From the sequence record MK373778.1: 64,000 bases of DNA. One strand, 5' to 3'. Shown in pieces: positions 14,049 through 31,758 of this stretch. The first letter of the stretch is position 1. Each line of letters begins with the position of its first letter. Source of the stretch: Escherichia phage vB_EcoM_WFbE185. The notes below the pieces were generated by a model. That model saw nothing but the letters and a program-made list of their open reading frames with translations. It had not been told where the DNA came from and searched no databases. A program made the position numbers and the translations under genes.

Positions 14049-15817
14049 AACCTGAAGAAATGAAATCCATGCGTAGAAATAAGGTCATTGCCGATAATAA
14101 ACCACAAAAAGTAGCTGCAACAGCAGCTACCGATTCATTAGAAGCATTGAATGACATTTCATCAAAACTAGACGATGTCCAAGCCGCGTCTGAACTCACA
14201 TCACAAAGTGTAGAAGATAAAGGCAATGGAATTATTGAATCAATTGGAGACTTAAAGAATTCGACAGATAATACTGCTGAAGGCACAGAGCTTATCGCAG
14301 AAGTTATTGAAAAACAAACTGAAGTCACTAAAAGTATAAACGAAGTTTCTAGTGCAATAAGCTCTAAGTTAGACCGATTAGCTACATTATTAGAGCAAAA
14401 ATTACAAACATCTACCGCTATTCAAAATACAGGAGGCACCTCTCTTGAAGTAATTGAGAACGCAATACCTGTTAAAGTGGTTGAGAATGAAACTTCTGAC
14501 GAGTTGTTTAAAGCATTACCTACACCTGAAAAGATTGATAATAAGCCAGACGAAGATTTCTTCCCGGCCCCGGTTCAAGAAAGTGCTAATTCTACTTCCG
14601 ATTCTAAAGGCGGAATTAGCTTTAAATTGAGTGATAAAATTGCAATGCTCACCAAAACAGTTCAAACCGGGTTTAATAAATCAATATCAATTTCAGACAG
14701 AATTGCTGGAATGCTTTTCAAATACACTATAACGGCTGCTATTGAAGCAGCAAAAATGGCCGCACTTATTCTTGGTATTGTTATCGGTATTGATTTATTG
14801 ATAGTCCATTTCAAATATTGGACAGACAAGTTCACTTCTGCCTGGGATTTATTTGATGAAAACTTTACTAAATTCTCCGATGAAGCTAAAGAGTGGGGTA
14901 AATTCTTAAGTGATATATTCACTTCTATTGACTCGATAAAACAAATGTGGGAAGCTGGAGACTGGGGTGGTTTAACCGTTGCTATTGTCAAAGGTGTAGG
15001 AACAGCATTAATGAACTTAGGTGAACTAATTCAATTAGGAATGGCTAAACTCTCCGCGTCTATATTGCGTGCTATAGGTTTTGGCGATACCGCGGACGAA
15101 ATAGAAGGACGTGCTTTAGAAGGATTCCAAGAAACTACTGGGAACAAATTAAAGAAAGAAGACCAAGAGAAAGTCGCTAAATATCAAATGAAACGTGACG
15201 ATGGGGAATTAGGAACCGTTTCTAAAGGTCTTGATATGTTACAACGCGGCAAAACATTCGTTACTAACTGGGTTCGTGGTAATGACAATAAAGAAGAGTT
15301 TAGTACAAGTGATGAGCGCGCTGCGGAATCAGCAAAATTAAAAGAGTTACCTGAAGAGGAACGTAAAGAGGCGTACATAAAAGCGAATGAAACTCGTGCC
15401 GCACTGGTTAGATTTGAGGATTATATCGATAAAATCGATATGACTAATCCAGAAAATGCTAAAAACGTCGAGAAGTCTTATGCTGATTTAAGTAAACTTA
15501 TTAAAGACCCTGAACTTAATAAAACTCCTGTTGTTAAAAAGGAAATAGATGCTAGATTTGAAAAGCTAAATAATAAAATGGCTGAAGCCAAAAAGGCTCA
15601 GACTACAGTTAAGCCTGAATCTTCGTCTAAATCTCCGGAAGCAAAACAAGTTCAGTCAATAGAGAAAGGACGTGCTTCTGAATCTAAACAACAGCAACCG
15701 GTAGCGGCGATTAGTAACACAAATAATGTCGTCAAAAAGAATACCGTAGTCCAGAATATGACCCCTGTAACAAGTACAACGGCTCCTGGAATTTTCCATG
15801 CCACCGGTGTTAATTAA
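14045..15817 (+). CDS. 29: baseplate hub / tail length determinant gp29
   Basis: 590 aa as in T4; ATGA overlap with gene 28. Confidence 0.9.
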   Translation: MKPEEMKSMRRNKVIADNKPQKVAATAATDSLEALNDISSKLDDVQAASELTSQSVEDKGNGIIESIGDLKNSTDNTAEGTELIAEVIEKQTEVTKSINEVSSAISSKLDRLATLLEQKLQTSTAIQNTGGTSLEVIENAIPVKVVENETSDELFKALPTPEKIDNKPDEDFFPAPVQESANSTSDSKGGISFKLSDKIAMLTKTVQTGFNKSISISDRIAGMLFKYTITAAIEAAKMAALILGIVIGIDLLIVHFKYWTDKFTSAWDLFDENFTKFSDEAKEWGKFLSDIFTSIDSIKQMWEAGDWGGLTVAIVKGVGTALMNLGELIQLGMAKLSASILRAIGFGDTADEIEGRALEGFQETTGNKLKKEDQEKVAKYQMKRDDGELGTVSKGLDMLQRGKTFVTNWVRGNDNKEEFSTSDERAAESAKLKELPEEERKEAYIKANETRAALVRFEDYIDKIDMTNPENAKNVEKSYADLSKLIKDPELNKTPVVKKEIDARFEKLNNKMAEAKKAQTTVKPESSSKSPEAKQVQSIEKGRASESKQQQPVAAISNTNNVVKKNTVVQNMTPVTSTTAPGIFHATGVN

Positions 15818-26940: not shown

Positions 26941-27249
26941 TTACATAAGAAGCAAACGTTCTACCGGAGTACCATCAACCGAAATTACTTTATCAAGGCG
27001 GAAAGAACGCCACTGACCTAACTTGGTATCGAATGCTCGAACTGATTCACGAGGTTCAGAACGAACTTCTGTTGCCGGATTGTTATTTTCATATTTGACT
27101 TCAAGTTCATCGCGCGAAGCAAACATAGTGCGTACCTCACCGTTAGCCTTTTCAAATACAACACAATGAACGCCTACAGACAGAATAGTTTTAATACGTT
27201 CACGAAGAACCATAGTCTCTTGTTCAGTTAAAATCATATTATTCACCAC
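26941..27249 (-). CDS. hypothetical protein (31.1-like)
   Basis: 102-aa ORF between cd and gene 31. Confidence 0.5.
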   Translation of the reverse strand: MVNNMILTEQETMVLRERIKTILSVGVHCVVFEKANGEVRTMFASRDELEVKYENNNPATEVRSEPRESVRAFDTKLGQWRSFRLDKVISVDGTPVERLLLM

Positions 27250-27820
27250 AAAAGTTTCGGATTTGTTCCCAATTCAGAGAACGAAGATTATTACGAGAGT
27301 ACTGAATTACTTCAATACCGGCTTGTTTTAGAATGTCTGCCCAATTTTCAGGAGATCTGTCATATAATTCTGCGTATACAACCTTTTTAATACCTGACTG
27401 TGTAATAGCTTTAGTGCAATCAGGACACGGAGAAAGCGTCGTATATAACGTAGCACCTTCAATAGAATTACCTTTACGAGCTGCAAACAAAATTGCATTC
27501 AATTCAGCATGGATTTCATTATTAGCAGACCATGCACTATGAGCCGCTCGATGTTCTTTAGCCAAAACAAAATTATCCACCCGTCCAAATGCTGTAGTGC
27601 CTTCTTTATGCCCAGCAACGATGACCGGGCTTGGTTTATTCTTCAACCAACCGTTTTCGGATGCATGTTCGCAACAGTTTGTACCACCTGAAGGAGAGCC
27701 ATTATAACCTGTAGAAATAATGCGTCCATCTTTTTCAATGACGGCACCAACTTTCCATGAACAACATTTTGATTCTTGAGAAATCAAATAAGCAATTTGA
27801 AGATATGTGCTAGCTTTCAT
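27239..27820 (-). CDS. cd: dCMP deaminase
   Basis: 193 aa; zinc motifs HAE...PCxxC (HAELNAILFAARKG, SPCPDC); matches T4 Cd. Confidence 0.92.
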   Translation of the reverse strand: MKASTYLQIAYLISQESKCCSWKVGAVIEKDGRIISTGYNGSPSGGTNCCEHASENGWLKNKPSPVIVAGHKEGTTAFGRVDNFVLAKEHRAAHSAWSANNEIHAELNAILFAARKGNSIEGATLYTTLSPCPDCTKAITQSGIKKVVYAELYDRSPENWADILKQAGIEVIQYSRNNLRSLNWEQIRNFCGE

Positions 27821-28812
27821 TATTGAACCTTATTAATATAAGTTAACAGCTCTTTAGTTTGTTCCCAACTGATGCACGCATCGGTAACGGAAACGCCATA
27901 GGACATATTATCAGAAATTTTTTGATTTCCTTCATGTAGGAATGATTCTATCATAATTCCTTTGACCAAATCATTAGCTGCTAAATTTTTACCAATACCA
28001 ATTTGATTGCTATAATGCCCAGCAGCGTTTGCATGGCTACAGTCAACCATTACATAATGATTCAGACCTACTGCACTTGCTTTGTTAGAAGCTTCTTGAA
28101 TATCAGAAGAATGATAGTTCGGGCCGTTGGTCCCGCCACGCAATACGATATGCGTATTCTGATTACCTTCAGCTTCAACAATGCCTACAGTACCATCGAC
28201 GTCCATACCCATATACCGATGAGGCCAGGCGGCACTATACATCGCGTCTGTAGCTACTTTAATAGAACCATTGGTTGCGTTCTTGAAGCCTACGCACATC
28301 GGTAGACCTGAAGCAATTTCACGATGTGTCTGACTTTCAGTCGTACGGGCGCCAATAGCAACCCATGAGAAAATACCAGAAAGATACTTAATCGTGAATG
28401 GGTCTAATACTTCAGTTGCTAATGGAAGTCCCATACGTAGAAGTTTACGACACAATGTTCGTGCAACTATAAGACCGTGGTTCATATCAAAACTTCCGTC
28501 AAGATATGGATCATTTACAAGACCTTTCCAACCTACGGTAGTTCGAGGCTTTTCAAAATAAACGCGCATCACTAACAGAACATTAGGAAGACGAGTTTGA
28601 AGTTCAGCCAGACGTTTGCCGTATTCAACAGCAGCAATAGGGTCATGAATTGAACAAGGACCTACAACAATAAGTTTGCGTGGGTCTTCACCGTTCATAA
28701 TCGAATTAACTTGTTCGCGATGAGAAGCCACTTGTGATGCGTAAGCTTCCGACAAAGGAATAATCTCAGCCAGTTCTTTTGGAGAAATAAGTTTTCCGAC
28801 GACAGGTAACAT
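27820..28812 (-). CDS. 3-deoxy-D-arabino-heptulosonate-7-phosphate (DAHP) synthase, class I-alpha (AroF/AroG/AroH-like)
   Basis: 330 aa; signature blocks LIVVGPCSIHD, RVYFEKPRTTVGWKGL, IGARTTESQTHRE, VGFKN, VMVDCSH, ESFLHEGNQ, YGVSVTDACISWE; AAGGA RBS, ATG start. Confidence 0.9.
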   Translation of the reverse strand: MLPVVGKLISPKELAEIIPLSEAYASQVASHREQVNSIMNGEDPRKLIVVGPCSIHDPIAAVEYGKRLAELQTRLPNVLLVMRVYFEKPRTTVGWKGLVNDPYLDGSFDMNHGLIVARTLCRKLLRMGLPLATEVLDPFTIKYLSGIFSWVAIGARTTESQTHREIASGLPMCVGFKNATNGSIKVATDAMYSAAWPHRYMGMDVDGTVGIVEAEGNQNTHIVLRGGTNGPNYHSSDIQEASNKASAVGLNHYVMVDCSHANAAGHYSNQIGIGKNLAANDLVKGIMIESFLHEGNQKISDNMSYGVSVTDACISWEQTKELLTYINKVQ

Positions 28813-28932
28813 AACAATCCTTAGGAGATATAAACAGATTCTGATTCAACAATACCTTTAACCGGATTAGACAGGCTAAGTTGGTAGTGCTCAGATTTAT
28901 GACCATTCTCGATAGTAATGAGATAGCTCTCA

Positions 28933-29169
28933 TTATAGTGTTCCATATACTCGAGTTGCTTCAACAAGACCATCACTGCCTAATTTAAGATTAGTAATTT
29001 GGTCACCATCTTTAGGATTAACGATTATGAGAAAAGAACGTGGAGATTCTTGAATAACTCGTAATGTTGCATCTTGGAAACGTTCAGACACTTTATTGAT
29101 GAGTGCTTGAGCAAATTCTTTTACTTTAATCTGAAATTCGTGTACTGTAATTGGGTTTTCACTTAGCAT
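28933..29169 (-). CDS. hypothetical protein, first gene after an early promoter
   Basis: 78-aa ORF; hairpin-embedded early promoter at 29198-29227. Confidence 0.45.
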   Translation of the reverse strand: MLSENPITVHEFQIKVKEFAQALINKVSERFQDATLRVIQESPRSFLIIVNPKDGDQITNLKLGSDGLVEATRVYGTL

Positions 29170-29197: not shown

Positions 29198-29227
29198 ATA
29201 GTATCACAACTCTACCATGTTGTAAAC
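29198..29227 (-). promoter_or_regulatory. early promoter (GTTTAC-N18-TACTAT) with -10 inside 9-bp inverted repeat; heads the transcription unit containing DAHP synthase and cd
   Basis: Inverted repeat GGTAGAGTT / AACTCTACC (29189-29197 and 29208-29216) brackets the -10. Confidence 0.5.
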
Positions 29228-29229
29228 CA

Positions 29230-29505
29230 TTAAATTGCTTTGCATTCAATTTTTTGTGTACCGAAATTGATATCACATTGGATAACTAAATCGCCGTCAA
29301 GATCAAATACCACGATGACGTGTGCAGACCCAGGGAGAAGAGTAATAGCAATAGAATCTACTTGGTCTGGGAGCAAAGCATTGAGTACATGAGTTACTTG
29401 AGCATGAACTCTGAGTTCGGCTGCATTATTAAGCACTTCAAACATATTATTAGCAATAATCTGACTGAAGACTACCTTTACAATTTCAGAATAAGTTGGG
29501 AACAT
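29230..29505 (-). CDS. hypothetical protein (cd-pseT interval)
   Basis: 91-aa ORF, compact minus-strand array. Confidence 0.45.
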   Translation of the reverse strand: MFPTYSEIVKVVFSQIIANNMFEVLNNAAELRVHAQVTHVLNALLPDQVDSIAITLLPGSAHVIVVFDLDGDLVIQCDINFGTQKIECKAI

Positions 29506-29737: not shown

Positions 29738-29909
29738 TTAACCATTCAATTGCCTGGTCGACGTTATCAAATATACCACCGTCCAAACGTTCTTCATGCT
29801 CATAGTCCAGCACATCAATACCGAACTGTCCATTTACTAAAGGCCAGGCTACAAACAAATATTCTTTATGCTGTTCGATTGTACGAAAAATCTTTTCGAT
29901 GTTATTCAT
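29718..29909 (-). CDS. hypothetical small acidic protein (cd-pseT interval)
   Basis: 63-aa ORF overlapping both neighbours. Confidence 0.4.
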   Translation of the reverse strand: MNNIEKIFRTIEQHKEYLFVAWPLVNGQFGIDVLDYEHEERLDGGIFDNVDQAIEWLNENYVR

Positions 29910-30624
29910 AAGTTTTCCATTTTCTACCTAGTTGCCAGTCCGGGCTGTTTAATCTAGGATCGTTTATATCGGTGGTAGAAGACTTTTTACCTGAAATATG
30001 GATTAACCATTTTCTAGATTTAGCTGCTTTAGAATAATTTTCTTTAGCCTTATCACTTCTAACCTTGCCTTTATTGGATTTGGATATTTTATTACCCCAT
30101 TCAATAATAGACTCTTCACTCATAAAATCTTTAACATTCTTACCATACATAGGATTATTTTCGCCTTTAAACGTATTACCATTTTTAAGACGGGTTTCTT
30201 TAGATTTAATCCCATGACCTGGCAATTTCTTACCTTTAATCCAAGGAACCACACCATTATTAAATCGTTCTTTTTGCGATTTAGAAATTTTTGCAGATGT
30301 TTCTGGGCTTGAATTAACATTAATACGATTTTCATTAATATAATCCCAGCCTCCTTCTCCGCCAGGTTTCAAATTGTAATTAGTATCCAGTTTTATAAAT
30401 TCTTTAGTTACTAATTTGGCTTCTAAATCATATGCTTCTTGTTTAGTTTCAAATATTTTTATGATTTCTTTATTAAAAGAATCTTTACCATATTTTGATT
30501 CAGCATTTTTAAAAGCTGTACCGGAACCTAAATAAGAATCATTTTCTTTTAAGGTCTTATGAACCCCTATATAAATTTTGTTGTTAACCAAACATGTGGT
30601 TTTATACACAGTGTATTTTTCCAT
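29902..30624 (-). CDS. free-standing GIY-YIG homing endonuclease (Seg-like)
   Basis: GIY-YIG variant motif VYKTTCLVNNKIYIGVH at N-terminus; Lys-rich C-terminal DNA-binding region; ATG MEKYTVYK with GAGGTGA RBS (track start is GTG). Confidence 0.8.
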   Translation of the reverse strand: MEKYTVYKTTCLVNNKIYIGVHKTLKENDSYLGSGTAFKNAESKYGKDSFNKEIIKIFETKQEAYDLEAKLVTKEFIKLDTNYNLKPGGEGGWDYINENRINVNSSPETSAKISKSQKERFNNGVVPWIKGKKLPGHGIKSKETRLKNGNTFKGENNPMYGKNVKDFMSEESIIEWGNKISKSNKGKVRSDKAKENYSKAAKSRKWLIHISGKKSSTTDINDPRLNSPDWQLGRKWKTYE

Positions 30625-30671
30625 TAGAATCACCTCTATAGATATTTATATTCATCTATGGAGATTTCTAA

Positions 30672-31758
<1,087 letters not shown>

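Follow-up and report, generated by a model that had tools for sequence, protein, structure and literature searches.

Why should a lytic T4-like phage carry a gene for the first enzyme of the shikimate pathway? The question is raised by the genome of Escherichia phage vB_EcoM_WFbE185 (sequence record MK373778.1), of which we analysed a stretch of 64,000 nucleotides, hereafter the window. On its minus strand lies an ATG-initiated open reading frame (ORF) that encodes a type I-alpha synthase of DAHP (the 7-phosphate of 3-deoxy-D-arabino-heptulosonate), and an identical protein (100%) occurs in Escherichia phages p000y, vB_Eco_F27 and others. The explanation that we favour, and consider probable as a whole, is that this is a competent, deregulated DAHP synthase, encoded by an auxiliary metabolic gene that several T4-like genera carry as an accessory. 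Neither the presence of the gene nor the role proposed for it is new. Full-length homologues are found in 212 phage records, and many of these bear the annotation DAHP synthase, aroF or phospho-2-dehydro-3-deoxyheptonate aldolase; the domain is listed in the phiC120 genome paper (PMC8022965), and for the Kanagawavirus copy a 2025 Klebsiella phage paper suggested the role of an auxiliary gene for aromatic amino acids (PMC11845039). What we add is the prediction of feedback insensitivity, the lateral import of the gene into Mosigvirus, and its one-way association with phages that arabinosylate their DNA.

27820..28812, minus strand: DAHP synthase coding sequence (330 aa), type I-alpha, from translation, profile searches, alignment and a structural model

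An earlier note on this DNA had recognised the ORF as a DAHP synthase by seven motif blocks, all of which are present in the translation, and the protein searches and structure prediction that it had proposed led to the same identification. The protein matches PF00793 (DAHP_synth_1) with 251.8 bits (threshold 25.5, E=7.4e-75), and the NCBIfam models TIGR00034 (aroFGH equivalog, 427 bits for a cutoff of 173.2) and NF009395 (454.8 for a cutoff of 343), so that its membership of the family is far beyond chance. It misses the NCBIfam cutoffs of the AroG equivalog (364 against 568) and of the AroH subfamily (384.8 against 463). Its best match among solved structures is E. coli AroF (6agm, E=1.5e-104, 51% identity), with which (6agm, 6agl) it shares catalytic and metal residues, a Gly at the position of AroG Ser211 and a Pro at that of AroG Met147, and from which it differs by deletions of five and three residues near the C-terminus. 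An AlphaFold2 model built on an alignment of 43 sequences (predicted local distance difference test score 93.5, predicted template modelling (TM) score 0.92) was superposed by Foldseek on 4hso, 5cks, 1gg1 and 1kfl, N. meningitidis DAH7PS and E. coli AroG among them, with a TM score of 0.96 and a root-mean-square deviation of 1.3-1.5 A. The predicted structure is thus the (beta/alpha)8 barrel of AroG-type enzymes. In PHROGs, residues 1-330 cover profile positions 8-337 of the 341 of phrog_5045 (E=9.4e-182), a family categorised as 'moron, auxiliary metabolic gene and host takeover'.

Is the phage protein likely to be an active enzyme? We aligned it with AroG, AroF and AroH of E. coli MG1655 and with the orthologues from five other phage genera. 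All 19 of the AroG catalytic, metal or substrate positions checked are kept in the six phage genera, and a subset of ten of these positions is identical in 126 of 126 sequences compared.

C53, H56, R83, K88, P89, R90, T91, E134, R156, K177, R225, H260, E289, D311 (phage numbering): catalytic residues, from the alignment

The positions of AroG Cys61, His268, Glu302 and Asp326, which correspond to C53, H260, E289 and D311 of the phage protein, are conserved in all 126 sequences. Equally retained are those of Arg92, Lys97-Pro-Arg-Thr, Arg165, Lys186 and Arg234 (R83, K88-P89-R90-T91, R156, K177 and R225). From the structures of AroG, we take the first group to be metal ligands and the others to contact phosphoenolpyruvate (PEP) or erythrose-4-phosphate. 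The residues kept include the metal-binding Cys and the His whose possible loss the earlier note had singled out for checking. The alignment therefore predicts a catalytically competent, metal-dependent DAHP synthase. One might imagine instead that the enzyme has shifted its substrate, for example to arabinose-5-phosphate as in the synthases of 3-deoxy-D-manno-octulosonate 8-phosphate (KDO8P), and makes a product other than DAHP: PF00793 also holds KDO8P synthase, and arabinose-5-phosphate is generated by these phages. In KdsA-type enzymes, however, another substrate motif replaces KPRT, whereas the phosphate-binding motif KPRTT and all the other AroG substrate and metal ligands are unchanged in the phage protein, the family models that it matches best are equivalogs for DAHP synthase, and the NCBIfam matches include no KdsA model. 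On the retained substrate motifs and the exclusively DAHP-synthase matches in NCBIfam we rejected such a specificity, which is extremely improbable.

The regulatory site tells a different story from the active site. The earlier note had described the N-terminus as diverged; it is indeed altered, and beyond divergence it is about nine residues shorter than in AroF, AroG and AroH, so that residues 1-9 of AroG (and of AroF) have no counterpart. Moreover, AroG P150, Q151, S180 and A202 align with I141, K142, P171 and S193 of the phage protein, and AroF has Pro151, Gln152 and Ser181 where the phage has Ile-Lys-Pro.

I141, K142, P171, S193, Y200, G202 (phage numbering): remodelled allosteric positions, from the alignment

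Feedback resistance has been engineered at several of these positions. The P150L variant of AroG is fully feedback-resistant, S180F is resistant as well, the Ser side chain binding the main chain of the inhibitor, Gln151 takes part in inhibition by Phe, and A202T is partly resistant (PMC9529685). Deletion of Ile11 in AroF also gives a feedback-resistant enzyme (PMC10729320). The phage protein is thus altered at 150, 151, 180 and 202 and in the same N-terminal segment as these AroG (P150L, S180F, D146N, A202T) and AroF variants, but its changes are natural and combined, they involve other residues (Ile, Lys, Pro, Ser), Asp146 is kept, and resistance is here a prediction. The signature was surveyed in the 120 best matches from 5.8 billion proteins, together with reference sequences. 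Ile-Lys-Pro is present in 25 of the 27 members of the phage clade, Ile-Arg-Pro and Pro-Lys-Pro in one each; among the bacterial sequences, 88 have Pro-Gln-Ser and the others close variants. The catalytic Cys is preceded by 48-52 residues in the phage clade and by 58-95 elsewhere. Both Ile-Lys-Pro and the short N-terminus are confined to the phage clade among the sequences surveyed, and all ten T4-like loci of IMG/VR have Ile-Lys-Pro. As aligned, the phage protein has neither the canonical inhibitor pocket (Pro150 or Gly, Gln151, Ser180) nor the N-terminal segment that closes it. Because a short N-terminus is associated with Ile-Lys-Pro at known feedback-resistance positions, we infer that the canonical feedback by Phe, Tyr and Trp has been lost and that the enzyme is probably insensitive to all three. 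The truncation and the three replaced positions are in line with the altered allosteric response that the earlier note had considered possible.

Loss of the canonical inhibitors need not mean loss of allostery. Six genera whose proteins are 58-77% identical share the pocket segments DPFTIKYL and SGLPM without variation, and Y200, G202 and S193 as well, which makes a new effector a serious alternative. The pocket would then have been remodelled while remaining allosteric, the Lys or Arg at the position of Gln151 binding another compound, for example chorismate, prephenate or a phage-specific molecule. A positive charge at that position is indeed retained in 27 of the 27 sequences of the phage clade. 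Yet the pocket segments also lie at subunit interfaces and beside active-site loops, where structural conservation may suffice, the phage protein lacks the N-terminal strand by which AroG and AroF close the pocket, and the ligand cannot be deduced from sequence. We consider this alternative unlikely.

Our results thus favour a deregulated enzyme, which might act as follows. It would condense PEP and erythrose-4-phosphate into DAHP during infection, from a gene that has the orientation of early genes and is probably co-transcribed with cd and other nucleotide-metabolism genes. As the most likely consequence of the changes in the pocket, Phe, Tyr and Trp would be unable to shut it off. Carbon would then be kept flowing into the shikimate pathway regardless of the amino-acid pools, and on toward aromatic amino acids and chorismate-derived cofactors through the remaining pathway enzymes of the host. 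Several observations weigh against this explanation. The substitutions in the pocket differ from the characterised ones (Ile and not Leu at 150, Pro and not Phe at 180), and invariance of the pocket across six genera fits a site in use as well as a dead one. The annotated sequence flanking the gene (25 kb) showed no further gene of the shikimate pathway, and our literature search found no experimental study of any phage DAHP synthase. Recent constraint, judged from the polymorphism described below, looks weak, though young polymorphism inflates the ratio on which this is based. Finally, the gene is missing from RB69 and from Shigella phage JK36, and is therefore accessory, not part of the T4-like core in which the earlier note had placed it.

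How did an accessory gene come to occupy a fixed place in T4-like genomes? The survey of the cd-pseT locus suggested in the earlier note found it in six T4-like genera and not in the two phages just named. Mosigvirus, Kanagawavirus, Winklervirus, Marfavirus, Bragavirus and Kagamiyamavirus have proteins of the same family at the same pseT-cd locus, with no difference in kind. In RB69, cd.2 abuts cd directly, and comparison with that genome delimits a block with conspicuous borders.

27824..28917, minus strand: block of about 1.1 kb (ORF41 and DAHP synthase), absent from RB69, from genome comparison
28924..28936, minus strand: left repeat copy ATAATGAGAGCTA, holding the cd.2 stop and a relic of the cd start
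27811..27823, minus strand: right repeat copy ATAATGAAAGCTA, holding the DAHP synthase stop that overlaps the cd start (TAATG)
28821..28946, minus strand: ORF41 (41 aa, phrog_15876), truncated C-terminal half of a cd.2 homologue, forming the 5' part of the block
28933..29169, minus strand: cd.2 homologue (DUF7320, phrog_1504), resident and intact, lying upstream of the block
27239..27820, minus strand: cd (dCMP deaminase), directly downstream of the DAHP synthase

The block is bounded by a direct repeat of 13 nt, ATAATGA(G/A)AGCTA, which has exactly two copies in the window, for 0.02 expected. The fragment at its 5' end resembles the cd.2 of other genera (z-scores of 11.5 for Kanagawavirus, 9.3 for Marfavirus and 9.0 for Kagamiyamavirus) far more than the resident cd.2 of the phage itself (2.8), and in these three genera a full cd.2 homologue lies directly ahead of the DAHP synthase. 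Within Mosigvirus, the gene is also unusually homogeneous. Its mean nucleotide divergence among four genomes (0.8%) is, tied with that of denA, the lowest of 27 genes, whose median is about 4%, and among five genomes its synonymous divergence is 0.004-0.027 versus 0.12-0.26 for the abutting cd. The tract of low diversity (approximately 28944 to 27804) coincides with the block: its 1110 nt hold 19 variable sites, and 1116 nt of the genes on either side hold 70 (Fisher p=2.7e-8). Overall, divergence in the block is roughly one fifth of that in its flanks. The simplest reading of these comparisons is that the block reached Mosigviruses by recombination from another T4-like lineage, and that its spread within the genus is more recent than the origin of the flanking diversity. 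Lateral import implies that a gene position shared between genera is no proof of strictly vertical descent, a scenario that is weakened by the tract of low diversity, by the repeats at its borders and by the cd.2 fragment of foreign type. We also noted that the relic of the cd start in the left repeat (ATGAGAGCTA) opens an ORF of 55 codons (MRAISLL…, 28766-28933, minus strand) that runs in another frame across ORF41; rather than a gene, it probably represents a side effect of how the recombination junction formed.

A block that moves between genomes might be a dispensable passenger, of little or no current benefit, that T4-like recombination simply carries along. This would account for its lateral transfer and for the presence/absence polymorphism within one genus. 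It might also account for the excess of nonsynonymous changes: among the five Mosigvirus genomes, the variable sites are 12 nonsynonymous and 6 synonymous in the DAHP synthase gene, versus 7 and 38 in cd (Fisher p=1.5e-4), a ratio that fits young polymorphism or somewhat relaxed constraint. On the other hand, all the amino-acid changes within Mosigvirus affect positions at which the genera differ as well, about 139 of roughly 152 Mosigvirus records have kept the gene, and its amino-acid identity tracks that of flanking core genes. The frame is intact and all the catalytic residues are kept in the six genera and in the 27 members of the clade, down to 55% identity. A mere passenger therefore seems quite improbable.

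The older history of the gene agrees with long residence in phages. The 27 sequences of the phage clade are monophyletic (neighbour-joining bootstrap 179/200), and their nearest neighbours are AroF-like proteins, at most about 55% identical and spread over several phyla, which is why no donor can be named. The G+C content at third codon positions (GC3) of the gene is 0.29, as expected from the 24 long ORFs of the window (0.285 +/- 0.036), whereas it is 0.50 in E. coli aroF and 0.50-0.57 across aroF, aroG and aroH; in the other genera, too, the GC3 of the gene matches the genes of its own phage. The phage-like composition on which the earlier note had based its argument against a recent host capture is thus borne out. 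Since the GC3 resembles that of phage genes and not that of the three E. coli genes, the capture from bacteria is, on compositional grounds, old; a recent one is ruled out by the GC3, the fact that no bacterial relative exceeds about 55% identity, and the monophyly of the clade. Between genera, we compared amino-acid identities, synonymous sites being probably too diverged for ratios of nonsynonymous to synonymous rates, and found that the values for the gene follow those for its neighbours cd, pseT and gene 31. One 99%-identical cluster representative is labelled an E. coli protein by NCBI; it is located on a contig of 170,875 bp, most likely the genome of a phage that was submitted as part of a bacterial assembly.

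Could the gene serve the phage in something other than aromatic metabolism? In RB69 and related phages, cytosine is replaced by arabinosylated 5-hydroxycytosine, the sugar of which has been proposed to derive from ribulose-5-phosphate of the pentose phosphate pathway via arabinose-5-phosphate (PMC13326640). We located the corresponding gene cluster in p000v, used two of its proteins as search markers, and found the arabinosylation cluster in all six T4-like genera that have the DAHP synthase. An irreversible drain of erythrose-4-phosphate (and PEP) might shift the pentose phosphate pathway toward ribulose-5-phosphate, and thereby toward the arabinose-5-phosphate needed for uridine diphosphate (UDP)-arabinose. 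The proposed source of the sugar fits this idea (PMC13326640), as does the subset relationship in the counts per host: 212 records have the DAHP synthase and 373 the cluster, with 25 and 25 among Klebsiella phages and 7 and 7 among Proteus phages. But the relationship runs in one direction. RB69 itself, the reference arabinosylating phage, has the cluster and no DAHP synthase, and so do Dhakavirus, Acinetobacter phages, Yersinia phages and Shewanella phage Thanatos. In p000v, the cluster lies beside the DNA polymerase gene, at 120-127 kb, and the DAHP synthase at 15.8 kb, more than 100 kb away. Furthermore, the association may rest on very few evolutionary events, and the papers on arabinosylation do not mention a DAHP synthase gene. 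Because the cluster occurs without the gene, and because the two loci are so far apart, the DAHP synthase does not belong to the modification pathway. That it plays a supporting role in metabolism, for example by draining erythrose-4-phosphate, is unlikely, and we hold it improbable that the gene supports arabinosylation in this way. The stronger version, in which a naturally deregulated enzyme is kept only in arabinosylating phages and has carbon rewiring for hypermodification, not aromatic amino acids, as its main job, deserves similarly little credence. With RB69 and several genera having the cluster only, this one-way subset led us to treat the link as an improbable alternative. Among these phages, the Klebsiella (Marfavirus), Proteus (Bragavirus) and Dhakavirus lineages have a divergent version of the sugar-activating enzyme of the cluster (561 aa, 42-43% identity). 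They are not among the arabinose-5-phosphate isomerase matches listed, and may rely on the isomerase of the host.

The surroundings of the gene bear on when it would be expressed. As the earlier note had stated, the ORF lies between cd and pseT, though it is not adjacent to the latter: the order on the minus strand is pseT, a GIY-YIG endonuclease gene, cd.4, an ORF227c homologue, cd.3, cd.2, ORF41, DAHP synthase, cd, 31.1 and gene 31.

30672-31571, minus strand: pseT, not adjacent to the DAHP synthase
29902-30633, minus strand: GIY-YIG/NUMOD3 homing endonuclease (phrog_314), between pseT and cd.4
29230-29505, minus strand: cd.3 (DUF7355), between the ORF227c homologue and cd.2
29198..29226, minus strand: promoter-like site upstream of cd.2, sigma-70-like (T4 early-type), TTTACA-17-TACTAT preceded by TG, consensus match at 9/12
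28818..28822, minus strand: Shine-Dalgarno-like AAGGA, 5 nt upstream of the ATG (28812-28810), overlapping the ORF41 stop

The stop codon of the DAHP synthase overlaps the start of cd by one base (TAATG), so the two genes are probably co-transcribed and may be translationally coupled. AAGGA makes for a good ribosome-binding site. The earlier note had proposed an early transcription unit headed by a promoter at 29198-29227. The site exists, but its match to the consensus is of a kind that arises at the rate expected by chance: the region has 20 promoter-like sites, for 17.9 +/- 4.2 in shuffled sequences. Since such matches are no commoner than in shuffled sequence, the site (29226..29198) is a candidate promoter for a unit comprising cd.2, ORF41, the DAHP synthase and cd. 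No terminator-like hairpin was found on the coding strand between this site and cd, and inspection by eye revealed no convincing MotA box or late-promoter motif upstream of the gene.

Other features of the neighbourhood are worth recording. The endonuclease gene between pseT and cd.4 is an extra feature of the phage of the window; its homologue is annotated SegD in phage PNJ-9, and it is missing from most close relatives, which cover only 83% of this interval of 4.7 kb. At the same place after pseT, a homing endonuclease also occurs in Proteus phage PM2 (L008 2606-3322), which suggests that this is a recurrent insertion site for such elements. Both cd.3 and the ORF matching positions 15111-15479 of p000v (L001) have sharply different alleles among close Mosigviruses, the nucleotide divergence being about 30% and 34% from one allele group to another and 1-5% inside a group, which indicates that they are hot spots of allelic replacement. 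In RB69, cd (L012 615-1124) is annotated with 169 aa and a differing C-terminal tail (…ILKPSWY), versus 193 aa in the window. The difference has the look of a frameshift or of an error in sequencing; similar split-ORF sequencing errors have been reported elsewhere in the RB69 record (PMC13326640).

T4-like phages are not alone in carrying such genes. Giant-virus metagenome-assembled genomes (MAGs), other viral contigs and Aeromonas phage HJ05 likewise have virus-borne type I-alpha enzymes with the full catalytic set, but these are only 38-52% identical to the phage protein, occur in unrelated contexts and have a full-length N-terminus. Pro-Gln-Ser is retained in 33 of 36 giant-virus MAG loci and in 19 of 22 loci of other viral contigs in IMG/VR. 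The enzymes of the 36 giant-virus contigs (L034-L092, GVMAG) are 40-47% identical to the phage protein. Long homologous ORFs of 630-670 aa were found on viral contigs L055 (3965-5977), L060, L066, L068, L077, L080 and L081. That of L055, the one scanned, is a DAHP synthase fused to a prephenate dehydratase (PF00800, E=8e-16), which joins the first step of the pathway to a step of the Phe branch in one protein. HJ05, a phage of 79 kb that is not T4-like, has a separately placed DAHP synthase (L010 4899-6062, 387 aa, 38% identity) with Ala-His-Pro at the three pocket positions; to judge from these residues, it may be a second phage case of an altered feedback site.

Overall, this gene is one of the few biosynthetic genes outside nucleotide metabolism that enterobacterial T4-like phages have retained. 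The 1.1-kb block, with its repeat borders and its foreign cd.2 fragment, provides a clean example of an accessory gene that moves between T4-like genera and keeps its position, and RB69, which lacks the gene, and its close relatives, which have it, offer a natural comparison to assess its benefit. If the predicted feedback insensitivity is true, the clade would represent a deregulated DAHP synthase that occurs in nature and has been tuned by evolution, and engineering of the shikimate pathway could make use of it. It would also show clearly a lytic phage that overrides the end-product control of an amino-acid pathway of its host.

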